Shown one piece after another: positions 34,162 through 55,164 of a stretch of DNA of 64,000 nucleotides (positions are counted from its first letter, which is position 1; the number at the start of each line of letters is the position of its first letter). The DNA is taken from the IMG/VR virus record IMGVR_UViG_3300025608_000019, positions 1,775 to 65,774 of that record. One strand, written 5' to 3'. Position numbers and translations under genes: made by a program. Source of the DNA: a virus. Taxonomy: Duplodnaviria; Caudoviricetes. Under the pieces are notes generated by a model. It was not told where the DNA came from and did not search any database. It worked only from the letters and a program-made list of their open reading frames with translations.

Positions 34162-35484
34162 TTACAGTTTTAAGAAAACCTTTCTTGTTTCAACTTCAAT
34201 TCTTGTAATTTGTACTGTTATCGTGTCGTTCTTTTTAATTGTCTCTTTATCAAAATCTTCTGGTAATTCAGAAACATGTAATAATCCAACAACTCCTTCA
34301 CCAACATCTAAAAATACACCATAATCTTTAGTTGATTTAACAACGCCAGATACCTCAACTGGGAATGATGTATATTTTTCAGCAATTAACTTCCAAGGGT
34401 CTACAACGACTTGCTGTTCAACTTGGGTCAATGTAATCTTAGTGTTGCTGATTACTTCTTTTACTTTAAACTCAATTGGATCTCCTGGATTAATTTCTCT
34501 AGATTTATGTTTCTTTAAAGTTTCAATATCTAAATCGTTAACGTGAATCATTCCAGTTAAACAACCATCGAATTCAACGAATACACCGTATTTTGCAGAT
34601 CCTGTTACATTACCAGTTCTCACAACGCTAAGATCATTAGAAATTTCTTCGATTCTTGTAGGAATCATAGCTTGTAAGTATTTTCTATGTGAAACTACAA
34701 TTGTTCCTTTTTCTGGAGAATAACTCATCGGAACTACATATAAATCAGTATCGATAATAGATTCAAAATCTACTAATTTGTTAATTCCAGCTAATGAACC
34801 TGGCATGAAGCACTCTACTCCTTGGATACTAACAATGTATCCACCATTTTGAATCATACTAACTACAGTACCAACATATGCTGTAGTTCCTTCTTCGATA
34901 GACGATAATATTTCTCTAGTAGTAGCAGCCTTAATTCCAGCTTCAACTGATCCTAATATAAATCCTCTTGGATTTGATCTTTGATCACCAGTAATTTGTA
35001 CAGATATTGGAGCTCCAGGGACTAATTTAGATTTTGATATCTCAGATTCCTTAGACATATCAACATAAACTGATTCTCTATATCCTACGTCGATTGAACA
35101 CCATTTAGTGTCGACTCCAATTACAGAACCTTCTAAAGTTTCTCCAATATTAATTTTAAATCTAATAGAATCTCCTTTAGAAGTATAGTGTTCATCCATT
35201 AAATCATATAGCTCTTGAGCATACGATTCTCTAGAATACACCTTTTCACCGTTACGTGTTTTAATGTGTGGGTTTGGTTTTCTTGTTCGAGATGGGCATG
35301 TTGATTCAAATGCATCCCAATCGAATTCTCCAGCTTCATTATGCCATTCCCTACCATCATTAATGGTTTCTTCGATTTTTGCTTCAGTTCCTAGAACTTC
35401 AGCTTCTTTTACCGGTGCTTCTTGCGCTAATTTCTTAGTTAATTCTCCGATTCTTGGTTTTTTTTGTTTTTTGTCTGTTGACAT
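34162..35484 (-). CDS. rpsA: Phage-encoded ribosomal protein bS1 homologue (4 S1 domains)
   Basis: Four OB/S1 repeats (GETLEGSV..., GVECFMPGSL...IVVSHRKYL, YGVFVEFDG.LTGMIHVNDL, YGVFLDVGEGVVGLLHVSEL); N-terminal FDWDAFE. Confidence 0.85.
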   Translation of the reverse strand: MSTDKKQKKPRIGELTKKLAQEAPVKEAEVLGTEAKIEETINDGREWHNEAGEFDWDAFESTCPSRTRKPNPHIKTRNGEKVYSRESYAQELYDLMDEHYTSKGDSIRFKINIGETLEGSVIGVDTKWCSIDVGYRESVYVDMSKESEISKSKLVPGAPISVQITGDQRSNPRGFILGSVEAGIKAATTREILSSIEEGTTAYVGTVVSMIQNGGYIVSIQGVECFMPGSLAGINKLVDFESIIDTDLYVVPMSYSPEKGTIVVSHRKYLQAMIPTRIEEISNDLSVVRTGNVTGSAKYGVFVEFDGCLTGMIHVNDLDIETLKKHKSREINPGDPIEFKVKEVISNTKITLTQVEQQVVVDPWKLIAEKYTSFPVEVSGVVKSTKDYGVFLDVGEGVVGLLHVSELPEDFDKETIKKNDTITVQITRIEVETRKVFLKL

Positions 35485-35543
35485 TTTTGTTTGTTTAAAA
35501 AGTTAAAAATAAATATTAAATTCTAGTTATATATCGTTTTAAT

Positions 35544-37712
35544 TTAGAAAGAAGTCGGTGAAATACCTATCATCGGGATTGTTACCGCTCCTACTGTTAA
35601 TTGACCAACATATATAAATTTTAATTGTGCTAAGTGTTTAGCGTGTGCTTTTGCTACCGCAGTTGCTACTGTTCTTGTGGCTATATTTATGGTACCTGGT
35701 TTTTTAAATGATTTTCCAGAATTCCATGCCTTTCTAAGATCATTTGCTAATTTTGTTTTGCTTCCATAATATATAGGTATGTAAGTACCAGGGACTGGAA
35801 TATTACATAAAGGAATTGGTGGTGATTTTAAGAATGGCTGAGCAATCGTTGATTTCCAATAATTAATAGTTGCTTCAGCCATAATAACATAAGGATCTAC
35901 GAAACTGTCTTCACTTGCTTCTTCTGCTTCTGCTTTTGCTATCTCCGCATCAATAATGCTCTGCATCCATTTTCTTTTGAGATCAGCAAACCTTTCTATT
36001 TCAGCCTCATAAGCTTCCTTTTTATCAAGTAATCTAGCGCTTAGAGTTGAATATATAAGACTTTGCCTTACAGATTCTTCTGAATCCGCTAACCATGAAT
36101 AATCTTTATCTACTGAATTTATATAAGTAAATGTTACTAGATATTTCTCAACAAGCCAGTTTGGAATTGAATTTTTATTCATTTCGTGGGTTTCTTGAAA
36201 AACACATTTGTTTAAAGGGTTTTCTAATTTTACTCGAGCTATTAAATCCTTTTCGCGCTTATCATAGATTCTAATATTTTCAGCAGCAATATATTCTTCT
36301 AAATTACTATTAAATTTTTTAGCAAGATATCGCTGTGCGTTTGTTCCTCTAACTGGTTTAAATTTATCTGCGTATTCGGTATTTAGTTCGTTTAGTATAT
36401 TATAAAAATTATTATCAAATAACATTGCTTCTAAGACTTTCTTTACCTTTTTAGCCATCGGACCTATATACGTATTATGTTTATCTAGACTTTCAATAAA
36501 ATCCCAGTATGCATAGGATCCGTCAAACTCATACCATATTCTTTTTGCTATCTCCGCTATTCTTTGCTCTTCTACCATTTCAGGTATTTTACAAACTAAT
36601 TCCGTTGGCTCAACTGTAGATTCAAGAGTTGTTGTATCTCCTCCGAAAGTTCCAATTGCTTGAACCTCTCCACTTTCATTAAACACTACGCCATTACCAA
36701 ATAAACCTTCATTTGTATAATCAGTATCTATAATTACATTAACAACCTGACTAACTACACCCTCGACTCCGTTTGCACCCGTTACACTAATTAATTCATA
36801 ATTAGAAGTTATTGGGTCTCCTTTAATATATTTTGGTAGTGATATAGATATTGAGTCATTATATTTAGCTCCTTGAAACCCTGTAGCTCCTTGAAACCCT
36901 GTAGCTCCTTGGAAACCTGTAGCTAATGTTGTTTTAAGTTCAGGTTGAACAACACCATCAATTGAATATTTAAAAGTATATGGAGCTCCTCCTTCGGTAC
37001 CTTTAAAAGTTATTTTTCTATCGACTATATTAGATTGATTACTAGCTCCTTGGAAACCTGTATTTCCGCTATTTAATAGAGAAGATACAAATATGTTGTC
37101 AGCTAATTTAATATCCTTGTCTAATACGACAGCACTTGATGATAAAACATCTGGTAAATCGTTCTTTTTAAAATATTCATAGAATTTAAAATCATCTAAG
37201 TCAGCCTTGTTTTCTTCGATCCATGCTTCTAGTTCGCATGTGTGGTTAAATGGTTCGATTACAGGATATCCTTCTTCGAAATCAGAATATTCTTCCATTG
37301 TAAACTTTTCTTCTACCGTTGGGTTTGATACTGGTTCATGGACCACTGGATCAGTTCCTTCAAGAGATGCGTGTAGTTCGGAAAATGCCTTTGTAAATCC
37401 AGCAACTGGACCTGATCCAAATCCAGGTGTAATTATTTCTGTTGGATAATCTGGTCTGTCGTTTGGGTCTGGGTTTCCGATTGGAGGAGGATATGCAGTT
37501 ATTGGAGTTAATCTCTCAACACCAGGATCATTTCCTTGTAAAATAAGCAATTGTCCGGATTTATGAATGTTTCCAAATAAAGTTTGTGATGATTTAACCG
37601 CGTTGAAATATTCACTAGCCACGAATTTCCCCATCTCAATAGGACCTTCGAGTGTTCCGCTTGATAGTTTGTTAGATACGTTATTAATAAATGTAGGCCA
37701 ATTTGCCGGCAT
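35544..37712 (-). CDS. Hypothetical virion protein downstream of the gp5-like spike, with short collagen-like repeat
   Basis: 722 aa; GFQGATGFQGATGFQGA; Pro-rich segments; directly downstream of the gp5-like gene. Confidence 0.55.
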   Translation of the reverse strand: MPANWPTFINNVSNKLSSGTLEGPIEMGKFVASEYFNAVKSSQTLFGNIHKSGQLLILQGNDPGVERLTPITAYPPPIGNPDPNDRPDYPTEIITPGFGSGPVAGFTKAFSELHASLEGTDPVVHEPVSNPTVEEKFTMEEYSDFEEGYPVIEPFNHTCELEAWIEENKADLDDFKFYEYFKKNDLPDVLSSSAVVLDKDIKLADNIFVSSLLNSGNTGFQGASNQSNIVDRKITFKGTEGGAPYTFKYSIDGVVQPELKTTLATGFQGATGFQGATGFQGAKYNDSISISLPKYIKGDPITSNYELISVTGANGVEGVVSQVVNVIIDTDYTNEGLFGNGVVFNESGEVQAIGTFGGDTTTLESTVEPTELVCKIPEMVEEQRIAEIAKRIWYEFDGSYAYWDFIESLDKHNTYIGPMAKKVKKVLEAMLFDNNFYNILNELNTEYADKFKPVRGTNAQRYLAKKFNSNLEEYIAAENIRIYDKREKDLIARVKLENPLNKCVFQETHEMNKNSIPNWLVEKYLVTFTYINSVDKDYSWLADSEESVRQSLIYSTLSARLLDKKEAYEAEIERFADLKRKWMQSIIDAEIAKAEAEEASEDSFVDPYVIMAEATINYWKSTIAQPFLKSPPIPLCNIPVPGTYIPIYYGSKTKLANDLRKAWNSGKSFKKPGTINIATRTVATAVAKAHAKHLAQLKFIYVGQLTVGAVTIPMIGISPTSF
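36867..36924 (-). repeat. 18-bp tandem repeat x3 (GFQGAT)
   Basis: agctccttgaaaccctgt units; one further copy at about 37044-37063. Confidence 0.85.
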
Positions 37713-37741
37713 AATTCCTTTAGTTTATAGGATTATATATT

Positions 37742-38428
37742 CTATTTATTTTCTTGCTGATATGGTGGATGCACTGGATTCCATGGAATAATTGGCTTTC
37801 CACTAGGACCTGTTGGTGTCGGATGGATGTGGCTATTATATAGATCTTTAAAAATATCTAAAAAAGCTTCTAATGATTTTCCTCTAACTGTCGGTTCACT
37901 AATATCCTCCGTCGCTTCACCAGTGTTTGATAGATACACATTTCCAGCATCAAGAAATATTTTATCATCTGAAGATATTTTAATTATCCCAGCCTCATCT
38001 AATTGGATTATTGGCCTCTCTTTTGCTCCAGTTCCTCTTGTTATAACTAAGCCATCTTTATCTGAGTGGTATATTCTTACGTTTCTTGTAGAATCATATA
38101 CTAAACTAACAACATCTTGTGGAGCGCCAGAAGTGTCTAAGATATCTGCCTTTAAATCTTTATTTTGATCTATTTGAAACCAATACTCTGGATGATAGAT
38201 GTTACCGTTGTCAAATCTGACTGCAACTACAGTTCCAATATTTGGAGTATGATGCATTCCTACAAAATCACGATTCATTGGAGTTGCCCATGGAATAGAT
38301 TCATCTGGTAAATCGTCAAACTTCCCAAATACTTTAACTCGACATCTTCCTAGATTAGAAGGATCTGCATTATCTACAACCTCTCCGATCCAATGAGTGC
38401 CTTTAATATCGTCTCTTCCTTTAGCCAT
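37742..38428 (-). CDS. gp5: Baseplate central spike (gp5/VgrG OB-fold N-terminus)
   Basis: WIGEVVDNADPSNLGRCRVKVFG...IPWATP; C-terminal HIHPTPTGPSG metal-binding tip motif. Confidence 0.85.
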   Translation of the reverse strand: MAKGRDDIKGTHWIGEVVDNADPSNLGRCRVKVFGKFDDLPDESIPWATPMNRDFVGMHHTPNIGTVVAVRFDNGNIYHPEYWFQIDQNKDLKADILDTSGAPQDVVSLVYDSTRNVRIYHSDKDGLVITRGTGAKERPIIQLDEAGIIKISSDDKIFLDAGNVYLSNTGEATEDISEPTVRGKSLEAFLDIFKDLYNSHIHPTPTGPSGKPIIPWNPVHPPYQQENK

Positions 38429-38439
38429 TTTAATTTTTA

Positions 38440-39618
38440 TTAATCGTTTACGTTTCCAAGCGCTCTTTCTGCTGCTGCGTCTAATGCCGCTCTAGCATTT
38501 CCAGTTGGAATAGTTTCGTCATTTACATTAGCTACAATCGCAGCACCAACATCTCTAGTTTGTTTATTAATATCGGTTGCGTTATCTGCGCTTCTCAATG
38601 CATTTTGAAATATATTCTCGAATGTAGGAATTCTATTGACTGTGTTATCTCTTACCTTCTGTACGATTTCGTTCTTTTTATCTTGCACAAGTCTATTTAA
38701 ATCATCCTTAGCGCTAGCAACTGCTCCACCAATTCTATCAGTAACTTTATCTGTTAGATAATCCTGTAAGTTATCAAAACTTTCGTTTTCAGAATCTGGT
38801 GCTGGAGATAAAACATCTCCATTATAACTAGAACTAACAATTCCATTTAATACTCTCGCTTGAATTTTGTCGACATTTTCATATGTGATTGCTAATTCAC
38901 CAGCAGCTGGTTCTGAAGGATTCTTTGAAAGACTTGATAGGAATTCTCCTCCGCTCATCGTATCAAATTCACAGTAAGTCAGACCAAACATGAAGAAAGG
39001 TCGACCACTCTGACCAGATATTTCCTCATTACCGTTTTCAATACCAATAGATGGTTTAAAATTATCTGGAAAACCTGTAAGTGCATTTTTGTTTATACCA
39101 CCGATTTTAGGCTTATTCATGTTTTTTATAGTCCTAATTTCAGTAACATATACCCACATTCTAAATTTACGTAAGTTTGCAGGTACTACCCAATGCCATT
39201 TTTGATCATCAAACACTGCTTTTTTATAAAGGTGCATTAAACCAGAAGCCGTAAGGTTTATTGACTCTAATGTCTTTATTACTAATTTAGCGTCGTCTCC
39301 TCCCCAATAATTTTTGGTTGGATCATATTTCTGAAGTCTTTCAAGACCTTCTAAAGATTGCCAATACCATGGCATTGCATTATTTATAGTAGCAAGTGCT
39401 TGTTTAAAATTAATTAAAGCCTCTAGTTTTTCAGCATAATATTCATTTCCATCTGCTAATTTCTTAAGATAGTTTTCAGTAGTCTTTGAAAGTAGTGGTG
39501 AATTTTCAGCATCAAAAAAGTCAAATAATATGACAAACGACAAGTAAGTTGGATCCTGATATGGATAACTCGTTAACGAACCTTTTTTAAAGTCTTTTAT
39601 GCTCTTAAAATCTGACAT
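38440..39618 (-). CDS. Tube-fold baseplate protein (gp48/gp54-like by synteny)
   Basis: Position between hub and spike; FRMWVYVTEIR...CEFD...LAITYENV tube-like strands. Confidence 0.4.
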   Translation of the reverse strand: MSDFKSIKDFKKGSLTSYPYQDPTYLSFVILFDFFDAENSPLLSKTTENYLKKLADGNEYYAEKLEALINFKQALATINNAMPWYWQSLEGLERLQKYDPTKNYWGGDDAKLVIKTLESINLTASGLMHLYKKAVFDDQKWHWVVPANLRKFRMWVYVTEIRTIKNMNKPKIGGINKNALTGFPDNFKPSIGIENGNEEISGQSGRPFFMFGLTYCEFDTMSGGEFLSSLSKNPSEPAAGELAITYENVDKIQARVLNGIVSSSYNGDVLSPAPDSENESFDNLQDYLTDKVTDRIGGAVASAKDDLNRLVQDKKNEIVQKVRDNTVNRIPTFENIFQNALRSADNATDINKQTRDVGAAIVANVNDETIPTGNARAALDAAAERALGNVND

Positions 39619-39636
39619 ATTCTATATATTGTTATT

Positions 39637-41145
39637 TTACGATGACACTGTGTCTTCATTTATATTATTGATTCTACTTGGCCACTCTCTTCTTAGTAAA
39701 GTAAGTTTTTGAGCAACTGCAGGGAAACCTGCTTTATATATGTATTCAATACCACCAACGACGTAGTAACCACTTAAAAACTCATCGGCAACTACAGTAC
39801 CCGCTTGTGGGATATCCTCTTCACCAGTATCTGTGTCAACGTCGAATCCCTGTTCTTTCTTTTTATCTTTAATAACTTTATCAGCTCCTATTTCTTCAGG
39901 GCTTTCTTTAAAAATTATAATTGGAATCTTTTGATATCTATGTATCGCTGGATTATATGTTGATAGCTCTAATTCAAGAGTCATTTTACCAAGCTCATCT
40001 AGATTTTGTGCGTTGTGAATTGCTGCAAATTCATAGTTTAAATGTATATTAGAAGTTTCTGGATCTGCATTTTTTCTGCCCATCCATTTAGTTTTTACCT
40101 CATGTTTATATCTGTCCTCATCTCTCCTACCCTTCATAGGCTCTTCAATATCCTTCATCTTCTTACTAGTAACTGGTTCAATATCAAAACTAACTAGCCC
40201 TTCTTCAGAATCATTTTCATAAAATTTTAAAGTTTGCTTGTAACCATTCTTTTCAATATTAGATCCAGCATTATTTGTTAAAGCGAATTTAGTGATATGA
40301 TTACTGGTTCCTGTATATCTATTGTGAGTCGATAATATTAATGGTGCTTTCATGTTATTTGATTCATCAGCATCTACACTAGTTTGTTGATCAGTCATAG
40401 TTACGTCAAGTGCAGCAAGTGCATCCTCGAACGTTTCTTCAGATTCCATTAGTAAATTCATATTAACAAAGTTAATATAGTAGAAGGGATCTATTGAATA
40501 AGTTTGAAACGAATCGTCATCAACATATGAGTGTTTTACAAGATCTCCTAAAACGTCATCAATTGAATCATATGCTATAAATAAATTCATCTCATCGTCA
40601 GAAGAATCTATATTTGTTGCTAATCCTAATTTAAGATCTGTTGCAATTGATTCGATATGATCTAATGAACTACCTTTTCCATAAGACTTAGATATATCAG
40701 CATAAATTCCTGGAATTTTCATCCTTCCAGTAAATGTATATTTTGCGCCCGCAGTACTATCAGGGTTTTGTGGGTTTGCCTTTGGTGAAGTAACCTCAAT
40801 AATATCAAAATCAATTCTGATATCCTTGTATGTTTCTTTTTGCCTAGCACCAATTCTAATATTTACAACATCACCATCTCTAGGATAAGTATCTGCTTTA
40901 AATAAACCTTGGCTATCTTCTAATACTAATTGTAGAGAGGGTATTTTACCGCTAACATTCAATGACATTGATTTAATATTTTCGTCTGAAAAAGTGTAAT
41001 TGTTAACCGTAACTAGAACCAGGTAGTCTTTACTAGTATCCGCCTTTTCATTACCTTCACCTTCACCATAAGATGGAAATTGAACTTCATCTAATTTTAT
41101 CGTTGGCTCAAGTATTGTTAAAATATGATTGTCTAATGCTGCCAT
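39637..41145 (-). CDS. Baseplate hub protein (gp27/gp44-like)
   Basis: Synteny (gp53-hub-tube cap-gp5); LSGYYVVGGIEYIY...QKLTLLRRE hub-type C-terminus. Confidence 0.55.
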   Translation of the reverse strand: MAALDNHILTILEPTIKLDEVQFPSYGEGEGNEKADTSKDYLVLVTVNNYTFSDENIKSMSLNVSGKIPSLQLVLEDSQGLFKADTYPRDGDVVNIRIGARQKETYKDIRIDFDIIEVTSPKANPQNPDSTAGAKYTFTGRMKIPGIYADISKSYGKGSSLDHIESIATDLKLGLATNIDSSDDEMNLFIAYDSIDDVLGDLVKHSYVDDDSFQTYSIDPFYYINFVNMNLLMESEETFEDALAALDVTMTDQQTSVDADESNNMKAPLILSTHNRYTGTSNHITKFALTNNAGSNIEKNGYKQTLKFYENDSEEGLVSFDIEPVTSKKMKDIEEPMKGRRDEDRYKHEVKTKWMGRKNADPETSNIHLNYEFAAIHNAQNLDELGKMTLELELSTYNPAIHRYQKIPIIIFKESPEEIGADKVIKDKKKEQGFDVDTDTGEEDIPQAGTVVADEFLSGYYVVGGIEYIYKAGFPAVAQKLTLLRREWPSRINNINEDTVSS

Positions 41146-41149
41146 CTAA

Positions 41150-41641
41150 TTATATAATAATTTTACCGTTACCAATCTTAATATTAGCTGCATCTCCTAT
41201 TCCTTTGATATTTGGAGGTAGAGGATCTTTAGACCCATTAACTTTAAGCGCAGCCTTTCTTTTTAAATATTCAACTCGCTTGGCGTCTTTCACGCTAAGT
41301 CTTTTTGTACTAATGAATTGATCTCTAATAGATAATTTGTTCTCGTCATTATTTATTGTTTTAAACGGAATAAATCTAGTAGTAGCAAACTCATTAGTAG
41401 GTATTAATAATACGTCTCCTTCTGCGATAGAAAACGGGTTAGATATGCCATTATATTTAAGTATATAATCAACGTATGAAGCATCTTTGTAGTATTCTAA
41501 AGATATTAGATCAATTCTACATACTTCATCAGCATTGACAATATGTTCATCTATTATCTGTAGATTCGGGACAAATATTAGTGTGGGCTGAGTCATTCTG
41601 ACTTTACCATCAAGTATTGGTTTTTCGAATAGACTCTTCAT
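41150..41641 (-). CDS. gp53: LysM-type baseplate wedge protein (gp53-like)
   Basis: HIVNADEVCRIDLISLEYY...YILKYNGISNPFSIAEGDVLLIP. Confidence 0.75.
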   Translation of the reverse strand: MKSLFEKPILDGKVRMTQPTLIFVPNLQIIDEHIVNADEVCRIDLISLEYYKDASYVDYILKYNGISNPFSIAEGDVLLIPTNEFATTRFIPFKTINNDENKLSIRDQFISTKRLSVKDAKRVEYLKRKAALKVNGSKDPLPPNIKGIGDAANIKIGNGKIII

Positions 41642-43491: not shown

Positions 43492-43536
43492 ATATAGTAG
43501 ATATATTTATTTTTTATATATATCCACATTATCTAG

Positions 43537-44518: not shown

Positions 44519-44523
44519 TTAAA

Positions 44524-45707: not shown

Positions 45708-45732
45708 TATGTTGTTATTTTTATAATTATAT

Positions 45733-46366: not shown

Positions 46367-46368
46367 AA

Positions 46369-46406
46369 AAAAAGTCTATATATGTTATATTATATATAGA
46401 CTTTTT
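46369..46406. terminator. 15-bp perfect inverted repeat; probable bidirectional terminator overlapping TATATA boxes
   Basis: aaaaagtctatatat-gttatatt-atatatagacttttt. Confidence 0.6.
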
Positions 46407-46428
46407 AAAAAGTTTAGTTTTTAGAAAA

Positions 46429-46905
46429 TTAATCTTCTAATTCAGCACCGGGTGCGTTAGATGATTCTTTCATTTCGCTCATTTTCTTCGTGTAAGCTTC
46501 AACCATTTGGTTTAAACATGCTTCATACGCTTCACTTGAACTTTCATTCTTCATTTCCTTAAGAGTATTTGCAGCAAGTGTAGCTACAAGTGCAGCGTTT
46601 TCAATCATATATGTTTCTATTGTATGATCGTCATGTGCATCTGATTCCCAAACGCCTGCTTCTTCTTTAACTCCTGCGTAACAGTTTTCTAGCATTTCAG
46701 AAACCGGAATTGATTCTTCTTCGTTAGCTTCTTCAGATTCTTCTTCGTTTAATGATGATTCGTTTGCTTGAACTTCTTCAGCCTCGTCCTCTACTTCTTC
46801 AACATCTTTTCCTTCTGGTTCTCCAGCTTGTACGATGCCGTCTTCGATTTCTTCAGATCTGTCCATCTCTGCAACATACTGTTCAAATGATTTTAATTTT
46901 GCCAT
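46429..46905 (-). CDS. Acidic head-internal / prohead-core-like protein
   Basis: MAKLKSFEQYVAE N-terminus; extremely Glu-rich; GATATATA upstream. Confidence 0.65.
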   Translation of the reverse strand: MAKLKSFEQYVAEMDRSEEIEDGIVQAGEPEGKDVEEVEDEAEEVQANESSLNEEESEEANEEESIPVSEMLENCYAGVKEEAGVWESDAHDDHTIETYMIENAALVATLAANTLKEMKNESSSEAYEACLNQMVEAYTKKMSEMKESSNAPGAELED

Positions 46906-46948
46906 GATTTATATTATTTTATTATATTTTAATTATATATCTATTAAA

Positions 46949-47572
46949 TTAATTTGATTTAACCAGCTTCCAACCCTTAACGCTCTTTTTAGCATTAAAA
47001 ATTATGAGCGCGTCTAAATCTTGTTGAAAGTCTCTAGGGTCATAATCGACATATACAGCACCTACAAATCCGTTCTTAATTAAGAGCTTAGTTCCTTCAA
47101 GTTTCATTACTTGATCTGCAGAAGGATTACCTACAATTTCAGTCTCCCATTCTTGAGTGTCTAATCCGTTATCTTGAAATAACTTTTGGATTCTATCCTC
47201 AAAGACATCGCAAATCTTTCCACTAATCTTCGCAGAATATTGATAGGCTCCTCCGTTCTCTATCATATTAGCGTACCATCCATCGTCTGAATGTTCCTGT
47301 TCTAATGCAAACCACATTGGTCTATTATTAAGAGCCTTGATAGGTTCTCCAGCAACATGATACACTTGGTCAGTTACTTTCTCATTTTTAATGTAAGGAC
47401 TTTGATAGTTTTCTTCATTTAGAGATTCTCCAAGTACTGGTTCATTATCATGTCCACATTCATGGCATATATATAAATCATCTCCACCATCCTGTGACAT
47501 CCATTTCCAGCCACAATTATCGCATTCAATATGATTAGCTGTAAATTCTTCAAATAGTTTTACTTTTTTCAT
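46949..47572 (-). CDS. Capsid-targeted Zn-ribbon + ADP-ribosyltransferase-like (ART-PolyVal-like) protein
   Basis: MKKVKLFEEF; CDNC...CHEC; SLNE; then VYH...MWFALE...YQYSAKISG...NGFVGAVY...LIIFNAKKSV. Confidence 0.6.
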   Translation of the reverse strand: MKKVKLFEEFTANHIECDNCGWKWMSQDGGDDLYICHECGHDNEPVLGESLNEENYQSPYIKNEKVTDQVYHVAGEPIKALNNRPMWFALEQEHSDDGWYANMIENGGAYQYSAKISGKICDVFEDRIQKLFQDNGLDTQEWETEIVGNPSADQVMKLEGTKLLIKNGFVGAVYVDYDPRDFQQDLDALIIFNAKKSVKGWKLVKSN

Positions 47573-47760
47573 TAATAACCTACGCTATTTTTTACTGCAT
47601 TCTTAATCGCAACATCTTTTAAAAATTCTATATGATCTTCATCATCAGAATCCTCTTTATCTCCATAATTAACCTTAGGAATTATAGACTTATCGTCGTT
47701 TACAGAATCTTTATTTTTCTTTGATTCTATAAAATTATCGAATAGTTTAACATGTTTCAT
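47572..47760 (-). CDS. Small capsid-targeted peptide
   Basis: MKHVKLFDNFIES; coupled TAATG junction. Confidence 0.6.
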   Translation of the reverse strand: MKHVKLFDNFIESKKNKDSVNDDKSIIPKVNYGDKEDSDDEDHIEFLKDVAIKNAVKNSVGY

Positions 47761-48107
47761 TGTTTGTATATCTTTATTTTAAGATCTCCATTTCCAGGTA
47801 TTAATCTATGGATAGTTCCTTTGGGTATTTGAATGTCTATATTAGGTCGCATTTGTATTGGTAGTTCATTGTCATATTGAAACCTCCAACCTGAGTTTTC
47901 TAATACTTCTACTATTCGGTCTTCAGGATCTGCGTGCCATTTATATAAATGATCTGGATGCCCTGTTGTAAACTCTCTGATAACCTCAGTTTCAGATATA
48001 ATAGTTTCAATAAAGGGTTTTGTGTAATCGTCGATGTTTTGAATCATTTCATCGAATGATTCTTTACCACATTTACAAGATTCACATTTACAATCCTTTT
48101 TTACCAT
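47757..48107 (-). CDS. Cupin-fold protein with N-terminal Cys cluster
   Basis: CKCESCKC; WHADPEDR...IPKGTIHRLIPG cupin motifs. Confidence 0.7.
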   Translation of the reverse strand: MVKKDCKCESCKCGKESFDEMIQNIDDYTKPFIETIISETEVIREFTTGHPDHLYKWHADPEDRIVEVLENSGWRFQYDNELPIQMRPNIDIQIPKGTIHRLIPGNGDLKIKIYKQ

Positions 48108-48640
48108 GGTTGATCAGATTTTATTCCTAATTGTTTTGAAAATAGTGTAGGTCCATAGCATGCCCAGAATCCAGCTTTCATTGGATCCATTTTAGCTGCC
48201 TTATCGCAACCATGTCTAGCCCAAAAATTAGCAGCCCTTCCAGGATCATCATTTTTTACAGTAGTTGAAGGATCTCCCCATTCAATTTTCTTAGCAATGA
48301 TGTTTCCTTCTTTATCAGTTTTACCTGAGTTACGATATACTATAAACTTAGCCTTACCACCCCTTGATGGTGTATCTAGTTTAACTTTAGTTTGATTACC
48401 ACCTCTTGGTTTATAAACAGCGTCAGTACCTACTTCTAAGTTTTTAGCCATCCATCCACTTGGTCCTTTAAGAATAATATTACCCTTATCCCAGTATTGT
48501 TTAACCTCTTCGAATAGTTCAGTGTATTTGTCGCTACCTAATCTAAAAAGAGAATTAGTTAAATCTAAATCTTCTTCTAAATGTGCCTTTAATTCTGGAG
48601 ATACGTTACTCCAATTTTCAAATGTTTTTACAAATTTCAT
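48101..48640 (-). CDS. Capsid-targeted protein, DUF6321-like C-terminal domain
   Basis: MKFVKTFENW; KKIEWGDP..TVKNDDPGRAANFWARHGCD...KAGFWAC (family name from memory). Confidence 0.55.
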   Translation of the reverse strand: MKFVKTFENWSNVSPELKAHLEEDLDLTNSLFRLGSDKYTELFEEVKQYWDKGNIILKGPSGWMAKNLEVGTDAVYKPRGGNQTKVKLDTPSRGGKAKFIVYRNSGKTDKEGNIIAKKIEWGDPSTTVKNDDPGRAANFWARHGCDKAAKMDPMKAGFWACYGPTLFSKQLGIKSDQPW

Positions 48641-48981
48641 TAGTCTTCAAATTTATATGGGAGTTTCTTATCATGACCACCGTCTCTGACTTCTTTTGCG
48701 ACATCAGAATCAGCTCCTCCCCAAGTTCCTTTTCCTTTTTCTAAAAATGAATTTACTCTTGCGTATCCCCATCCTTCTTGTGTCATTCCCGGATGATGTC
48801 CACTATTCCAAGCGTCCATTCCACGTCTCATTATAATTCTAAGAATTGGTAGTGGTACTCCGCTTTCTTTAGATTTATTTTTAAGACCAGTTTCTACACC
48901 CTTACCTTTAAGTGGACCTCTATCGCCTTTGGCTTTTTCAGCCTCGTTGATGAATTGTTCGAAAAGTTTTATGTGTTTCAT
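48640..48981 (-). CDS. Capsid-targeted protein, DUF5824-like domain
   Basis: MKHIKLFEQFINE; LKNKSKESGVPL.IL..IMRRGMDAWNSGHHPGMTQEGWGYARVNSF (family name from memory). Confidence 0.55.
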   Translation of the reverse strand: MKHIKLFEQFINEAEKAKGDRGPLKGKGVETGLKNKSKESGVPLPILRIIMRRGMDAWNSGHHPGMTQEGWGYARVNSFLEKGKGTWGGADSDVAKEVRDGGHDKKLPYKFED

Positions 48982-50006
48982 TTAATTATAGTTTGTTTTC
49001 CATCAATGACGTCTTGATAATTTACCCTACCCTTAGATCTTTTAATTTGATCTTCGTTTTCTTTTAAATTTATTTTATAAATTGGCCTGATATACTCCTC
49101 GTTTAAATAAGTTTTAAATTCTTGAGGTAATTGTTCTCCATAAAAATTCTCGTATACTGCAACATAAACTCTAGCAAGCTTATCTGCTGCCATTCCTGAC
49201 GCTGAATTAACTTCAGCAACCCAACAGTCTCCAGATTTATCTATCATTAAATCAATTGACCAAAGTCCAAGTTTTAATTTCTTTCTAATCTCTTTACAGA
49301 TCTCATTTATTCTATCTATAAAATCTAATTTGTCCATATCCTGATCTACGTAGGTAAATTCAGTTTTCTCATCAGATTCTTTATCTTTAATTTCATTTTC
49401 ACTTGCAGATACTCTCTCATGAATTAGCGCTATTGTGTCTTTAACTATTAAAACTCTAAATTCAGTATCAAGATCTTTGGCTTCTGAATAATTTTCAAAT
49501 TCACCTTTACTTTTTTCTAAGTCTTCATACGTATCAAAAATCTCAATACCAACTCCTGAATGTCCGTCGTCTGGCTTTGCAATCACAGGAAATTCTAAAT
49601 CTTTTGCATCTTCTTTTTTATAAACAGAATTCGGCATAAAATCAGAATCTTGAAACATTTTATAAAATTTAGTTTTATTACCACTAACTTTCATATCAAC
49701 CGGGAGATTATACATAACATCCTCTTCTATATCATACTTCTCTAGAAAATCTAAACCACTCGATCCTGCGTAATAAATGAAGGGTAGTTCTGTGTTTATT
49801 TCTAAATCGCTTGCATAATCTTTTTCCGCGTAAAAGTCATTATATAACTCAATTAAACAATTCTCAGTTATGTCTCCATAGATACTACTTTTGGTTCCAG
49901 TAATATCTGATACATCCTTTCCTCCCATTAGAAAGTTAACTTTTTTTAGATAATCTTTATTAGACTTTTCTAAAATATACTCTTCATATAATTTTATACG
50001 CTTCAT
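48978..50006 (-). CDS. RimK-like ATP-grasp peptide ligase with capsid-targeting-like N-terminus
   Basis: MKRIKLYEEYILE; GNK, FPVIAKPDDGHSGVGI, EFRVLIV, GLWSIDL, WVAEVNSASG. Confidence 0.8.
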   Translation of the reverse strand: MKRIKLYEEYILEKSNKDYLKKVNFLMGGKDVSDITGTKSSIYGDITENCLIELYNDFYAEKDYASDLEINTELPFIYYAGSSGLDFLEKYDIEEDVMYNLPVDMKVSGNKTKFYKMFQDSDFMPNSVYKKEDAKDLEFPVIAKPDDGHSGVGIEIFDTYEDLEKSKGEFENYSEAKDLDTEFRVLIVKDTIALIHERVSASENEIKDKESDEKTEFTYVDQDMDKLDFIDRINEICKEIRKKLKLGLWSIDLMIDKSGDCWVAEVNSASGMAADKLARVYVAVYENFYGEQLPQEFKTYLNEEYIRPIYKINLKENEDQIKRSKGRVNYQDVIDGKQTIIK

Positions 50007-50036
50007 TCTCTATTTATATATTTATTAGTTATATAT

Positions 50037-50960
50037 CTAAGATAAAACCACGTCTAAATATTCTTTGCGATATTTGATTAGTGCAAGTTCTTTTGCTTTT
50101 ACTTCGAGTTCGATATCTAAGTCCATTCCGTATGTTTCAATACGTTCGTATAAATAATCAGCGTGTGCACGAATAATTGCAGTTTCGTCTTCGTGCAGTT
50201 TTTTAGCACTTGAATAATGGCATAGTTGTCTGATTCCAGAAGGCCAAGTAGTTGCTGCTAGTTTTAGTGCATCTTCTTCAGGCATAGGGTCATTGTAACA
50301 TCTGTGATGATGGTAATCGAATGTGATTGGTGTTCCTATTTGTTTGTAGATTTCGTATAAATCTGAGACTGAATACTGTGCTGGTTTGTCGTCGTTTTCT
50401 AGAACTAGTCGATTCTGAGCAGACTTAGATAATCTTTTAAAGTTCGTAACAAATCTTTGCATTGCAGCTTCTTTATCGCCGTATGAACCGCCAAGATGTA
50501 TGTTCATAGAATACGTTTGATTTTGAGGAAGACCCATCAAATCTAGTACTTGAGCTGATTTATCGAGTTCATCAATAGTGTTTTCAACAACATTAGGACT
50601 AGGGCTTGGTAAAACACAAAACTGACCCGGATGAAAGCCAATTCTTTGACCACTATCCATTGCTAATTTGCCAGCTGTTTCTAGTAATTGTTTAATCTTT
50701 TTAAAGTTTGGTAAATCAGATAGCTCGTATTCCGACATCCATGGAAACATATTAGAAGACATTCGGTATAAGTTAATACCGTTTTGTGTATTCCATTTAA
50801 GAATTTCGATCATGTCCGTGAGGTTAGCTTCCGCTAATTCACCAGCGTATTCGATGCCTTTGGCTTTAAATGTACGTTTTATCATGGATCTTCCAATCTT
50901 AATTCCACGTTCTTTTTCTAGTGTTAGGTTAATACAGCAATATCCGTAATTTGTAGCCAT
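50037..50960 (-). CDS. uvsE: UV-damage endonuclease (UvsE/UvdE)
   Basis: GYCCIN, LYRMSS.MFPW, RIGFHPGQF.VL.SP, NIHLGG.YGDK, RLVLENDD, TFDYHHH, HYSS, HADY, LEVKAKE. Confidence 0.93.
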   Translation of the reverse strand: MATNYGYCCINLTLEKERGIKIGRSMIKRTFKAKGIEYAGELAEANLTDMIEILKWNTQNGINLYRMSSNMFPWMSEYELSDLPNFKKIKQLLETAGKLAMDSGQRIGFHPGQFCVLPSPSPNVVENTIDELDKSAQVLDLMGLPQNQTYSMNIHLGGSYGDKEAAMQRFVTNFKRLSKSAQNRLVLENDDKPAQYSVSDLYEIYKQIGTPITFDYHHHRCYNDPMPEEDALKLAATTWPSGIRQLCHYSSAKKLHEDETAIIRAHADYLYERIETYGMDLDIELEVKAKELALIKYRKEYLDVVLS

Positions 50961-50964
50961 AGTT

Positions 50965-51201
50965 TTATTTTATTATAAGTGATTTTTTAATTTTGTTTAA
51001 AAATCTTTCAGCATCACACGCTTCTTCTAACGTGAACACATCTAGATCCTGAAATAGTAATCCTGTTCCTGTGTTGACAAACACAATCTCTCCTAGTTGT
51101 TCAACTGATGAAACCTGATGAACTGTCATATCCTCTATGTAAACGATATGCGTTGTTTCTGATATTCTATCAATTCTCTCTTCAAAGGAAATCAACTCCA
51201 T
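50965..51201 (-). CDS. Hypothetical protein
   Basis: 78 aa; overlaps the upstream ORF. Confidence 0.6.
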   Translation of the reverse strand: MELISFEERIDRISETTHIVYIEDMTVHQVSSVEQLGEIVFVNTGTGLLFQDLDVFTLEEACDAERFLNKIKKSLIIK

Positions 51202-51575
51202 TCTTTTTCAAAGGTATACCAATGGTCTGCACTTGCACAACAACTCAAACCATCAAGTATAATTATGTCCATTTCAGAACCGCTAAGAGAATCCACAAAG
51301 GCCTTAATATATCCTTCTAGTATTAAATCGTTTTCTGTTCCAGCTTTAGAGATCGCGGTTCTAGTAATAGCAGCTGCAATTCTTATAGCGACTGCATGAT
51401 TATCATTGAATCTCATTCCAGGGTAGAATCGGTCAGTTTGATCGAATTTATCTAAGATCTCGTCTTCTGTAAATCTCATTTTATATAGACCAATTGCCGT
51501 TTCTATAGTTGGAATTGAACTTTTAGCAGGTGTATAATAGCTGACACCATTTGCTTTAATATCTGATACTTTCAT
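51192..51575 (-). CDS. Hypothetical protein
   Basis: 127 aa; A-rich leader. Confidence 0.65.
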   Translation of the reverse strand: MKVSDIKANGVSYYTPAKSSIPTIETAIGLYKMRFTEDEILDKFDQTDRFYPGMRFNDNHAVAIRIAAAITRTAISKAGTENDLILEGYIKAFVDSLSGSEMDIIILDGLSCCASADHWYTFEKEWS

Positions 51576-51591
51576 TTTTTATATTTTTAGA

Positions 51592-51774
51592 TTATGATCT
51601 TAAGAATTCTCCTTCATACTTTACAAGTTCTCCAATTTTAGGAAACTTTACCTTGCTTGCATAATTAACTGCCGCTTTTTGTTCTTTTTTTAGATTCAGT
51701 GCCATTACCATAGTAATGTAAAGAGAATCTCCGACCATTTTACTGTTTTCTGAATTTACGTTTAATTTTGTCAT
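51592..51774 (-). CDS. Small early hypothetical protein
   Basis: 60 aa; directly downstream of a repeated promoter copy. Confidence 0.6.
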   Translation of the reverse strand: MTKLNVNSENSKMVGDSLYITMVMALNLKKEQKAAVNYASKVKFPKIGELVKYEGEFLRS

Positions 51775-51787
51775 TTGTTTGTTTTTT

Positions 51788-51834
51788 AATTATAGTATAA
51801 ATATAATCATTTTAGTTGATATAAAAAAATCTGA
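51788..51834 (-). promoter_or_regulatory. Early promoter copy 1 (CAGA-T7-...-TATATTTATACTATAATT)
   Basis: One of four near-identical ~47-bp elements; TATATTTA resembles the Bacteroidota -7 element TAnnTTTG. Confidence 0.75.
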
Positions 51835-51863
51835 TGTGATTTATTTTGAAAAGTTATTAACAA

Positions 51864-52082
51864 TTAGTATATTGTCTTGTATACTTCTTCGTATACGAAA
51901 TCTGGACACTCATCGTTGAGCCAGTCTAGTTCTTCTTCTGTGAGTTCTCTATATTGTCCATCCCACGTTTCTACAGCTGCACTGCTAATAAATGCGTCAC
52001 AGAAATCTGGGAAGTCTGAAGTATCGATTCCTTCTACTTCAATGTCTACTAATTGGCTTAATTTAAATGTTGGTTCTGTCAT
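51864..52082 (-). CDS. Acidic hypothetical protein
   Basis: DIEVEGIDTSDFPDFCDAFISSA...LTEEELDWLN; a motif I recall from other large phages. Confidence 0.65.
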   Translation of the reverse strand: MTEPTFKLSQLVDIEVEGIDTSDFPDFCDAFISSAAVETWDGQYRELTEEELDWLNDECPDFVYEEVYKTIY

Positions 52083-52093
52083 GATATTAATTT

Positions 52094-52327
52094 TTAAAGG
52101 TTATATGATTGAATGCTAAGATGTGAGTTAAATTCAGATTCTTCTTGTCTCCACATTCTTTGAATTCTTGCAGATTCGTTAGCAATGAATGACATATCTT
52201 CGGCAGTAATAGGACCGTATGTCTTTACTTGACACTCGAAAAAATGAGCTATTGATTCTTGATTATCGCTAGCAATATGATAAGCGATCTTTGGAAGGTA
52301 TCCGTTTGGGTGTTTTAAATTTGACAT
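52094..52327 (-). CDS. Early hypothetical protein
   Basis: 77 aa; directly after promoter copy 2. Confidence 0.65.
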   Translation of the reverse strand: MSNLKHPNGYLPKIAYHIASDNQESIAHFFECQVKTYGPITAEDMSFIANESARIQRMWRQEESEFNSHLSIQSYNL

Positions 52328-52341
52328 AATGTTTGTTTTTT

Positions 52342-52388
52342 AATTATAGTTAAATATAATAAAAATAAACGACATAAAAAAATCTGGA
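52342..52388 (-). promoter_or_regulatory. Early promoter copy 2
   Basis: CCAGA-T7-ATGTC-N12-TATATTTAACTATAATT. Confidence 0.75.
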
Positions 52389-52393
52389 CCAAT

Positions 52394-52726
52394 TTATTTT
52401 ACAAAAACTTTTTTATCATTAAGAATTTCTTCGATATGATCTGAAAATTCTCCGTAATAGGATTTACCACCAATGTTCCATGTTGTTAATTCATTAATTG
52501 TGTATTCAATGTCATATGTTTTCCAGTCATATAGAGTGAATACTTCTCCATCGAAATCGAAGTTCCATTCAAAATGAACCTTACCATCGCCACAATCATC
52601 AGGGCCCCATGTAGGTTCTCCAAAAGCCTCTACCAAATCACTATATCTAGTGTTGTGTAAATATCCTTTAAATGAGGTTCCACTTACAAATCCATCTTCT
52701 CTTGTTCTTTTTGTTAATTTTGACAT
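52394..52726 (-). CDS. Conserved phage hypothetical protein
   Basis: GTSFKGY...YSDLVEAFGEP...DGKVHFEW...FTLYDWK...WNIGG. Confidence 0.7.
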   Translation of the reverse strand: MSKLTKRTREDGFVSGTSFKGYLHNTRYSDLVEAFGEPTWGPDDCGDGKVHFEWNFDFDGEVFTLYDWKTYDIEYTINELTTWNIGGKSYYGEFSDHIEEILNDKKVFVK

Positions 52727-52739
52727 GTTGTTGTTTTTT

Positions 52740-52787
52740 AATTATAGTATAAATATAAACAAAATAAACGACATAAAAAAATCTGGA
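52740..52787 (-). promoter_or_regulatory. Early promoter copy 3
   Basis: CCAGA-T7-ATGTC-N12-TATATTTATACTATAATT. Confidence 0.78.
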
Positions 52788-52814
52788 GTGAATTATTTTT
52801 AAAAAAGTTTACAT

Positions 52815-52835
52815 AAAAAAAGGGACCGAAGTCCC
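52815..52835 (-). terminator. Rho-independent terminator (UUCG tetraloop)
   Basis: Minus strand GGGAC-TTCG-GTCCC-T7. Confidence 0.88.
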
Positions 52836-52857
52836 TGGCACTCGACTGGCAGTCAAG

Positions 52858-53202
52858 TTATTTCCAAAATAATTGTATTCCTATGATACAACACGCTAAT
52901 ATTAGACATACTGCGGTTTTTGCTGTAATTCCTTCATCTAATAAATAATACGTAAGAGCAGTGAACGTTATGATTCCACAAGTAAATCCAATAAATCTGC
53001 CAGGCCATATTTGACCGTCGTAATATTCTGCTATAAATCTGGTTGCAAGTATAAACATATAACTAATTACAGTACCACCAATTATCGAAATGGTTAATGG
53101 ATTCTTTTTAAACCATGGCCAGACAAATTGTCCGTTAGTTTGAATCCATATCATAGATTGCCCTAGCGCAAATAATAAAACGCCTGCTAAAAGTCCTCTC
53201 AT
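52858..53202 (-). CDS. Small multi-pass membrane protein (SMR/DMT-like)
   Basis: 114 aa; about 4 hydrophobic helices; C-terminal KTAVCLILACCIIGIQLFW. Confidence 0.6.
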   Translation of the reverse strand: MRGLLAGVLLFALGQSMIWIQTNGQFVWPWFKKNPLTISIIGGTVISYMFILATRFIAEYYDGQIWPGRFIGFTCGIITFTALTYYLLDEGITAKTAVCLILACCIIGIQLFWK

Positions 53203-53837
53203 TAGAATAAAGATCCTGTTTCTGTTAATAAATGAGAGATAAAACTTTCTCTGTGATTTTCAGTAGGGCCTAATTCTTTAATAGCATTAATATGTTGTTT
53301 AGTTCCGTATCCTTTATTCGAATTCCAACCATATCCGTAGGTTTCTTCGTCTAATTCTTTCATCATAGCATCTCTACTTGTTTTCGCTAAAATACTGGCA
53401 GCAGCGATTGATGTGTATTTATTGTCTCCACCAATTACAGTTTTAAAAGGAATTCCATCAAAGCCATGGAATTGATCTCCATCAACTAAAATAAAATCAA
53501 AGTGTTTGTTAGTTTCTTTTAGGTTCGACAAACACAGATGCATACCTCTAAGAGTTGCTCTTAATATATTTGTTGATTCAATTTCAGTAGGACTAACGTG
53601 CTCTACGTGATATGCTAGTGCGTTATCAAGTACTATTTTTCTAGCCTCTTTTCTCTGTTTTTCGTTAAGTAATTTAGAATCTTTAATAAGAGGATGGCTA
53701 AATCCATGCGGCATTATGCATGCTGATACTGTTACTGGACCTGCAAGAGCTCCTCTACCTGCTTCGTCAATACCTACTTCAATAATATCTGAGTCATTAT
53801 TGAAGCTACCTTTAAGTGAAATAATTTTAGATTCCAT
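53202..53837 (-). CDS. rnhB: Ribonuclease HII
   Basis: GIDEAGRGALAGPV, DSKLL, LVDG, GDNKY.SIAAASILAK..RD, KGYGT..H. Confidence 0.95.
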   Translation of the reverse strand: MESKIISLKGSFNNDSDIIEVGIDEAGRGALAGPVTVSACIMPHGFSHPLIKDSKLLNEKQRKEARKIVLDNALAYHVEHVSPTEIESTNILRATLRGMHLCLSNLKETNKHFDFILVDGDQFHGFDGIPFKTVIGGDNKYTSIAAASILAKTSRDAMMKELDEETYGYGWNSNKGYGTKQHINAIKELGPTENHRESFISHLLTETGSLF

Positions 53838-53883
53838 GTGTTTAATTTTATACTAGTTATACACATGGAATCAATTTTGTTTC

Positions 53884-54591
53884 TTATTTATCTGGATTTT
53901 CGATCTTCCACTTATCGTATTTATTTACAACATCTTGTAGAATCTTAGCTCTAACAATATCTTTGTTTTCAAATACATGGTGTCCAATTCCCTTAACACC
54001 GTCCATTAGTTTAATAAATCCAGGAAGTCCAACATTATTTTTTGGTATATCATATTGGCTAACATCTCCAGTTACTATGACTTTAGATCCTTTACCCATT
54101 CTAGTAACAAATAGCATTAACTGTTTAAATGTTGCGTTTTGAGCCTCATCGAGTATCATTAATGACTTATCAAATGTATCTCCTCTCATAAACGCAAGAG
54201 GCTTAAATAATATTATTTCGTTTTCGACTAGGGCTTCAGTTACCTGATCTCCTATAATTTTTTTAAGGTTCGATACATAAGACTGCATATATGGATCAGT
54301 CTTTTCTTTTATATCTCCAGGTAAGAATCCTAGTTTTTCACCAGATTCTTGTATTGGTTTACATAAAACAATTTGAGAAATTTCTTTGTTGGCTAATAGT
54401 TTTAAAGCAGTGTAACATGCCGTAAAAGTTTTAGAAGTACCCGCAGGTCCTTGACAAAATGTGATTTGATTTTCTAATATTGTGTTTACGTATTTATTTT
54501 GAGTTTGCCTTAATTGGGCTTTTATATTTTCAGGTTTAATATTAATATTTCTTTTGCCAGCTGGCATTCTTGAACTATTACCTTTATCCAT
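53884..54591 (-). CDS. phoH: PhoH-family ATPase
   Basis: GPAGTSKTF, GEKLGFLPGD, LAFMRG.TF, LDEAQN, VTGD.SQ.D, DIVR. Confidence 0.95.
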   Translation of the reverse strand: MDKGNSSRMPAGKRNINIKPENIKAQLRQTQNKYVNTILENQITFCQGPAGTSKTFTACYTALKLLANKEISQIVLCKPIQESGEKLGFLPGDIKEKTDPYMQSYVSNLKKIIGDQVTEALVENEIILFKPLAFMRGDTFDKSLMILDEAQNATFKQLMLFVTRMGKGSKVIVTGDVSQYDIPKNNVGLPGFIKLMDGVKGIGHHVFENKDIVRAKILQDVVNKYDKWKIENPDK

Positions 54592-54607
54592 TTATTATAT
54601 GTTTTAT

Positions 54608-54871
54608 TTAGTCACCTGCCATAATGACAAGTTCTTTAAGCTTAGAAAGAGCATCGCATTTTTCATATTCTTCGATCTCTATAAAGTATTTCATTAATAC
54701 ATCTATAAATTTACTTCTCTGTCCGACTCCATGTGGAATATCGATTATGTTTAAACCATCTCGAAAAACTACAAATCTGTTTACGGTCTTTGTAAAATTT
54801 CTTGTGATTATATAATAGCTAGACCTCATAAGAGAATCTCGGTCATCTCCTATATTATCATTCATTTTCAA
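54608..54871 (-). CDS. UVR-motif small protein 1
   Basis: C-terminal YFIEIEEYEKCDALSKL. Confidence 0.6.
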   Translation of the reverse strand: MKMNDNIGDDRDSLMRSSYYIITRNFTKTVNRFVVFRDGLNIIDIPHGVGQRSKFIDVLMKYFIEIEEYEKCDALSKLKELVIMAGD

Positions 54872-54972
54872 ATTCTTATTTTTAATACGTGTTTCGTATT
54901 TTGTATAATGTATATATTTAATGTCGCTTCAGGTTAAGACAACCGGAGTAAAAAAAATATCATATCATTATA

Positions 54973-55164
54973 CTACCATTTGTTTTCTTGGTCTCTAATT
55001 GATTGAATGAATTTAGCTTTGGTATTTTGTTTTCTTTTAGTTATTGATGGTTTTTCAAACTCTTTTCTATCTCTTAATTCTTGAGTTTGTTTAGTACTTC
55101 TGACTTTATATTTTAATTGTTTAAGAGCTCTTTCTATATTATTATCTACTTTGATTATTATCAT
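54973..55164 (-). CDS. rpsU: Ribosomal protein bS21
   Basis: IKVDNNIERALK..K.KV...ELRDRKEFEKPS..KRK; canonical S21 motifs, 63 aa. Confidence 0.92.
   Translation of the reverse strand: MIIIKVDNNIERALKQLKYKVRSTKQTQELRDRKEFEKPSITKRKQNTKAKFIQSIRDQENKW

Follow-up and report, generated by a model that had tools for sequence, protein, structure and literature searches.

The viral DNA analyzed here, a window of 64 kb out of a 65.8-kb viral contig (IMG/VR record IMGVR_UViG_3300025608_000019), encodes homologs of the ribosomal proteins bS1 and bS21 together with an ATP-grasp ligase. The evidence reviewed below points, with a probability of about 0.6, to two separate things, namely an S1 and S21 pair that would serve in the takeover of host translation, and an independent accessory cassette of leader-tagged proteins that includes the ligase. 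A preliminary description of the same sequence had instead joined the three genes into a single system for remodeling the platform of the 30S ribosomal subunit. The genes themselves had been placed correctly, since their open reading frames (ORFs) match exactly and all lie on the minus strand, which holds nearly all genes of the window (GC ~32%). The three genes are as follows.

34162–35484, minus strand: phage bS1 homolog of 440 amino acids (aa), identified by Pfam, NCBIfam, alignment with Escherichia coli S1, and an AlphaFold model
48978–50006, minus strand: ATP-grasp ligase of 342 aa from a small phage-only family, identified by Pfam, NCBIfam, and fold comparison
54973–55164, minus strand: phage bS21 of the Bacteroidota type, 63 aa, identified by Pfam, TIGRFAM, and structural relatives

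The window covers only part of a large phage genome. In IMG/VR, syntenic contigs of 160–179 kb are assigned a CheckV completeness of just 52–59%, and the genome is therefore put at ~300 kb. A search of sequencing runs located the window sequence in marine metagenomes, one of which is probably its source, with no RNA run among those listed as containing it. Deposited phages are all distant, and the closest S1 in the phage collection (36% identity) belongs to the 462-kb huge phage LR756500. A Bacteroidota-like host, of Flavobacteriales-like type, is supported. No tRNA genes were found in the window by ARAGORN.

Conservation of the S1 and S21 Pair

The phage belongs to a clade of marine jumbo phages in which S1 and S21 are part of the syntenic core. 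Among 21 S1-bearing clade contigs, S21 is present in 19 and a family ATP-grasp in 18, with the misses located at contig ends. In five relatives, at 49–56% identity, both loci are fixed: S1 lies in the baseplate module and is followed by an Amidoligase_2 gene, and S21 occupies the order DnaJ-x-S21-x-PhoH. The pair is real and conserved, and plausibly acts at the 30S platform, an idea that has already been published (PMC7162821; PMC9723584; PMC6375957). The preliminary description had regarded phage S1 and phage S21 as each known separately; the pair, too, is on record (PMC7162821).

The nearest published counterparts are the huge phages LR745206 and LR756501-504, which likewise carry both S1 and S21 in one Bacteroidota-associated large genome lacking Shine-Dalgarno (SD) motifs, and to which the same hijack model applies; that model, and the link between rpS1 and missing SD motifs in huge phages, were put forward by Al-Shayeb et al. 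(2020; PMC7162821). Their proteins are 29–38% (S1) and 44–48% (S21) identical to those of the window, and an Amidoligase_2 homolog occurs in both groups; in contrast to the LR phages, with genomes of 630–735 kb, the window clade is marine, is ~300 kb by CheckV, and has its S1 gene fixed in the baseplate module. The freshwater Bacteroidetes phages described by Chen et al. (2022; PMC9723584), with genomes that reach 331 kb, are also similar in that their bS21 is of the host type, position 54 being Tyr or another aromatic, and in that they conserve PhoH; for these both the replacement hypothesis and packaging in the virion have been suggested. They were reported without other ribosomal protein genes and with bS21 on the reverse strand in the head-gene region, whereas S21 of the window sits between DnaJ and PhoH and is accompanied by S1. 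Entry of a phage bS21 into E. coli ribosomes has been reported (PMC6375957).

Phage S1

The phage S1 protein gives a Pfam S1 domain match at E 7e-24, and its top NCBIfam matches are rpsA models (E 1.5e-39, model positions 23–371 of 580), far under the equivalog cut-offs (135.8 bits versus 524 for NF004952; 128.5 versus 577 for TIGR00717). It is collinear with residues 21–344 of E. coli S1, that is, domains D1–D4, including the degenerate ribosome-binding D1–D2 (E 1e-42). An AlphaFold model (pLDDT 73) contains OB barrels at approximately residues 114–179, 201–265, 286–353, and 374–439 behind a disordered N-terminus of 44 residues, in agreement with the four-domain bS1 of the preliminary description. 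D5–D6 are absent, and the full length of five to six domains is not reached. The layout of the protein can be summarized as follows.

Residues 1–44: disordered N-terminus
Residues 53–60: EFDWDAFE motif
Residues ~63–90: phage-specific basic insert
Remainder: four OB domains, corresponding to D1–D4

The N-terminal motif is held in common with the S1 proteins of five Flavobacteriales metagenome-assembled genomes (MAGs), reading ADFDWEAL in the host and EFDWDAFE in the phage, and the collinear BLASTP alignment begins at this motif. The host-type form (E/D)F(D/N)W(D/E) is present, with F54 and W56 invariant across 14 phage S1 sequences, and between the motif and D1 the phage proteins have a conserved basic insert (C63, R68, K69, N71, H73, and K75). 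Solved structures gave no significant match to the N-terminal 115 residues. A predicted complex of phage S1 residues 40–200 with Flavobacteriales uS2 residues 1–240 scored 0.70, with one control at 0.54, and is counted neither for nor against docking. In E. coli, S1 is anchored on uS2 by an N-terminal helix plus D1–D2. By analogy, the phage protein would be a bS1 that retains the docking parts and half of the mRNA-binding parts.

A different role can also be envisaged, in which the S1 homolog works off the ribosome as an mRNA-binding chaperone, a protection factor, or a cofactor of a phage enzyme, and does not replace host bS1. Scores far below the rpsA equivalog cut-offs, the loss of D5–D6, and the phage-specific basic insert would all be compatible with this, as would the location of the gene in the baseplate module beside an amidoligase and away from translation genes; host S1 is annotated as a cofactor of T4 RegB, and Al-Shayeb et al. 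(PMC7162821) left both the on- and off-ribosome options open. The protein nevertheless keeps the degenerate D1–D2 and the host-type FDW motif, which have no known role except ribosome docking, and we consider an off-ribosome function rather unlikely.

Two features lie immediately 3′ of S1.

34107–34136, minus strand: hairpin with a GC stem, then a T-run, read from the sequence just 3′ of the S1 stop codon, which looks like an intrinsic terminator
32749–34041, minus strand: protein of the Amidoligase_2 (COOH-NH2 ligase) type, its C-terminal half rich in repeats, identified by Pfam and synteny

The Amidoligase_2 gene is directly downstream of S1 in 5/5 syntenic relatives and in LR756500 (≤1.3 kb from S1), and among the LR-series huge phages its homologs are confined to the six with an S1 gene, all of which have one. 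S1 and Amidoligase_2 may form a functional pair, or the latter may be a conserved gene of the baseplate module.

Phage S21

Phage S21 exceeds the family cut-offs over its full length (PF01165, 40.5 bits versus 27; TIGR00030, 32.8 versus 28.95). Among solved structures it is closest to 9i5v_9 and to the Flavobacterium johnsoniae chain 7jil_z, with Firmicutes S21 five to six orders of magnitude worse. Its earlier assignment as a bS21 holds, and it is of the Bacteroidota type. When 185,579 species genomes were scanned with a sequence pattern, a search limited by the pattern used, seven cellular relatives were returned at 44–46% identity, all of them from Flavobacteriales or Bacteroidota MAGs. Phe52 of the phage protein aligns with Tyr54 of F. 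johnsoniae, keeping the aromatic ring and losing the hydroxyl, and relatives have Y or F at this position. Tyr54, located in the C-terminal helix of bS21, is specific to Bacteroidia; it stacks on A1534 and contributes to sequestering the anti-SD sequence (PMC9976891), and a non-Tyr aromatic occurs at position 54 in 7 of 61 phage bS21 proteins (Chen 2022; PMC9723584). With the FDW motif and D1–D2 in S1 and the aromatic residue in S21, both proteins have the features to be expected if they dock at the 30S platform.

The S21 gene belongs to a conserved block.

53884–56207, minus strand: DnaJ (55398–56207), 89-aa ORF, S21, 87-aa ORF, and PhoH (53884–54591)

In its wider form the order is exonuclease, DnaJ, 89-aa ORF, S21, 87-aa ORF, PhoH, and RNase HII. 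Conserved ORFs of 87–89 aa stand on both sides of S21 in relatives, and in the window the S21 start codon is located inside the preceding 89-aa ORF, with a 23-nt overlap (region 54608–56720).

Translational Leaders

The preliminary description had noted A-rich leaders without an obvious SD sequence, and the counts bear this out. One of GGAG, GAGG, or AGGA is present at −20 to −5 in 1/67 genes, versus 8.25 ± 2.75 in random same-strand 16-mers, and the leaders are 53% A versus 38% overall. Such A-rich, SD-depleted leaders fit Bacteroidota-style initiation; the depletion also fits the published scarcity of SD motifs in rpS1-bearing huge phages (PMC7162821).

For the S1 and S21 pair, we infer incorporation into host ribosomes. 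Phage S1 and S21 would be exchanged onto the host 30S subunit at the platform, on the mRNA-exit side; S1 would dock through its host-type FDW motif and D1–D2, leaving D3–D4 to bind mRNA, and the exchange would tilt initiation in favor of the phage leaders, which are rich in A and lack SD motifs.

Identity of the ATP-Grasp Ligase

The ligase is an intact ATP-grasp enzyme in which K144, D252, and the E265-x-N267 motif are conserved. It had been described as RimK-type, which is true only in a loose sense. The fold appears nearest to RimK, LysX, and ArgX, by a thin margin, with ArgX/LysX-LysW complexes ranking high in the structural comparison. The RimK model TIGR00768 matches at E 0.0019 with 17.6 bits, far below its cut-off of 143.4 bits. 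Ddl comes first in sequence searches, its models scoring slightly above the RimK model, and identity to E. coli RimK (PDB 4iwx, 5zct, and 5zk6) is 13–15%. An assignment as a RimK orthologue was rejected for these reasons. Compared with E. coli RimK, the phage ligase has additional parts at both ends, an N-terminal leader that looks cleavable and a helical extension at the C-terminus (~295–334).

A HMMER search covering all 1.84 billion representative proteins matched the ligase to only 182 clusters at E ≤ 0.001, and the family is therefore small and distinct; its nearest atlas clusters are all viral. The 57 members sampled match several ATP-grasp families, all weakly (Ddl-C, 38; YheCD, 31; ATPgrasp_ST, 27; R2K_2, 23; TTL, 13; and RimK, 13), with PF08443 giving no match at E ≤ 0.01 for the window ligase and weak matches in 13/57. 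Our reading is that the ligase is a divergent phage enzyme whose nearest folds extend the C-terminal carboxylates of proteins, a resemblance and not a membership. The ATP-grasp enzymes of the R2K clade, for which a role as ligases acting on host proteins has been predicted (Burroughs et al., 2015; PMC4431377), are similar in being phage-borne, and 23/57 members of the ligase family match R2K_2 weakly; the window ligase, however, lacks an R2K match at E ≤ 0.01, and its family more often matches Ddl-C and YheCD.

Linkage of the Ligase to S1, S21, and bS6

The preliminary description proposed that an injected ligase glutamylates bS6 early in infection and that S1 and S21 are swapped in later in favor of phage mRNA, the three genes constituting one 30S-platform system. 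Its suggested check, co-occurrence of the three genes, was made inside and outside the clade. Inside the clade all three occur together, which is uninformative because syntenic core genes all co-occur by shared descent. Outside the clade the ligase was found in 0/10 S21-bearing phage records, comprising 0/5 S21 contigs (one of them 95% complete) and 0/5 published S1 and S21 huge phages, and LR756500 has S1 and a ligase with no S21. Two distant ATP-grasp representatives (P0125 and P0133) are on contigs of only 3–5 kb, too short for context.

Within the clade, moreover, relatives differ in which ligase paralog they carry, in how many copies, and at which locus, with S1 and S21 always in the same positions. 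The 80% ortholog of the window ligase is found in a single relative (G027), elsewhere in the cassette; four others (G007, G012, G014, and G015) have instead a 28–32% paralog upstream of the exonuclease-DnaJ-S21 block; and another (L168) has two tandem paralogs, with a tandem fusion in a further family member (P0122).

As a substrate, bS6 also fares poorly. RimK extends the C-terminal Glu of bS6 (PMC7343187), and none of eight Bacteroidia bS6 proteins ends in Glu (endings ...AAN, ...SAN, ...ATK, ...ATA, ...EEA, and ...KNG), in a sample of the four S21-nearest MAGs and four RimK-positive Bacteroidia genomes that may not include the host of the phage. In five large relatives, neither a bS6 nor a bS18 gene was detected. 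An argument from hosts lacking RimK (0/5 S21-nearest MAGs) was dropped, as RimK-family proteins over the cut-off are encoded by 51/101 sampled Bacteroidia (50/100 once the unpublished genome G127 is excluded). A link of the ligase to bS6, or to S1 and S21, is not supported, with several points against it, and in view of the failed RimK cut-off, the bS6 endings, and the independent distribution of the ligase, a single three-gene system is very unlikely. The reading preferred here is that the ligase is an independent effector, probably delivered from the capsid, as the leader discussed in the next section would suggest.

N-Terminal Leader and Accessory Cassette

The ligase and its neighbors are tagged with a common N-terminal sequence.

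49968–50006, minus strand: N-terminal leader of the ligase, MKRIKLYEEYILE, with the spacing of T4 IPII/IPIII (MKTYQEFIAE) and ending in I-x-E
46429–48981, minus strand: five further leader-tagged genes (46429–46905, 46949–47572, 47572–47760, 48101–48640, and 48640–48981)
50037–50960, minus strand: UvdE UV endonuclease, identified by Pfam, conserved and directly upstream of the cassette

The tagged cassette is interrupted by one untagged gene (47757–48107), and a similar leader also opens the gene at 6862–7230. The cassette consensus is MK.[IV]K.[FY][ED][EQ][FY][IV].E. In the window and five relatives the motif opens 20/355 proteins, with 47 occurrences in 85,033 residues, an N-terminal enrichment of ~25-fold. 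The leader is present on each ATP-grasp homolog that was aligned or inspected, including copies of 28–30% identity and forms with a domain inserted behind it. Metagenomic homologs of the ligase show three types of fusion, namely an HExxH (DUF3920-like) domain preceding the leader (P0102), a tandem double ATP-grasp of 680 aa (P0122), and an insert of ~90–220 residues between leader and body (P0045/P0058), so that the leader behaves as a separable module.

Both T4 IPII and IPIII start with MKTYQEFIAE, and the spacing Y4/F7/I8/E10 is retained in the phage leader. In the T4 capsid-targeting sequence, targeting depends on residues 4 and 7, and processing on residues 8 and 10 (PMC9026906). T4-type propeptides comprise 10–19 residues and end at a gp21 site (L/I-x-E), a description that the phage leader fits. 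The likeness to T4 IPI-III and Alt extends to the use of a short leader, with aromatic, aromatic, I/V, and Glu residues at the T4 spacing, on unrelated and fast-changing proteins; to the presence of an enzyme among the tagged proteins, as with Alt; and to a gp21-type protease in relatives, where a Peptidase_S77 scores above the cut-off in 5/5 large relatives. There are also differences from T4, in that the phage leader has three extra residues after MK and the putative cargo is an ATP-grasp ligase and not an ADP-ribosyltransferase or a restriction inhibitor. Gene content of the cassette is shuffled among relatives, and its position just after UvdE resembles that of T4 ipII and ipIII just after denV.

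Packaging and injection of the ligase are plausible by analogy with T4, a reasonable inference because the leader is T4-spaced and enriched and Peptidase_S77 is present in relatives. The leader-tagged proteins would be loaded into the prohead, trimmed after I-x-E by the gp21-type protease, and injected along with the DNA. T4 Alt is an injected modifying enzyme; the injected ligase would be comparable, with different chemistry, adding an amino acid or peptide to a target carboxylate. The preliminary description had already suggested a virion-loaded ligase, and the leader on which this rests has proved real and enriched. A supposed "late box," TATAAATA, is instead under-represented, with five copies on the coding strand versus ~14 expected from base composition, and its copy at the ligase ends just 4 nt ahead of the ATG. 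It was rejected as a sign of when the ligase is expressed, and a late promoter is not supported.

Proteins of the phage itself, such as the acidic C-termini of co-packaged internal proteins, are another conceivable target, by comparison with the action of LysX and ArgX on LysW. The candidates would be a 158-aa acidic protein (46429–46905, ending ...ELED) and a DUF5824 protein (ending ...KFED). The structural matches to ArgX/LysX-LysW complexes are in line with this, as are the acidic ends of these two cassette proteins (orthologs of the acidic protein are likewise acidic-tailed) and the overlap of the ligase stop with the DUF5824 start (ATGA). Adjacency to either candidate, however, is not conserved: a DUF5824 homolog is found only in G027, where it is apart from the ligase, and the remaining relatives have the ligase at another locus. 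Modification of phage proteins is accordingly an unlikely function for the ligase.

Several points weigh against the separation of a translational pair from a delivered effector that is preferred here. Phage S1 scores 150 bits against E. coli S1 and only 108 against F. johnsoniae S1, and the origin of the gene in the host lineage is therefore not plain. The protease is seen in relatives only, the head module lying outside the 65.8-kb contig, and both packaging and ribosome incorporation are argued from analogies. Moreover, a family ATP-grasp is kept in each sub-lineage of the S1 and S21 clade (18/21 contigs) and is only ~3–5 kb from S21 in most relatives, so that a functional tie of the ligase to translation is possible. 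The most elaborate form of such a tie would have the leader-tagged ATP-grasps packaged and injected as peptide ligases that, at least in this clade, act on some part of the host's translation machinery upon entry and prime the 30S subunit for the later exchange of S1 and S21, so that SD-independent initiation would be reprogrammed in stages by three components; we regard this as highly improbable.

Other Features of the Window

A near-identical motif of ~27 nt, TTATATTTATACTATAATTAAAAAACAA, stands ahead of four small genes (51592–51774, 52094–52327, 52394–52726, and 56430–56720) for which relatives have no homologs. The motif may act as a promoter, early or middle, common to a set of variable genes. 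Tail-fiber genes with collagen-like PHROG matches and a family-2 glycosyltransferase block are found at 10694–15477 and 56807–63196. Genes of the 2OG-Fe(II) oxygenase and DUF6445 types also belong to the glycosyltransferase block. Relatives keep the glycosyltransferase at 59298–61145 and the gene at 61177–62106, and the oxygenase (58663–59295) fills the slot used in relatives by an ATP-grasp paralog.

Significance

For the Bacteroidota, in which initiation skips SD pairing, phage-encoded S1 and S21 offer the clearest candidate case of "specialized ribosomes" made by viruses. The clade described here provides a convenient test case, with a compact and conserved S1 and S21 pair and with the docking motif and truncation of S1 readable directly. 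We know of no ligase chemistry among injected phage effectors. The more original part of these genomes is the phage-only ATP-grasp family, each examined member of which bears a T4-like capsid-targeting leader; it would be an injected ligase.

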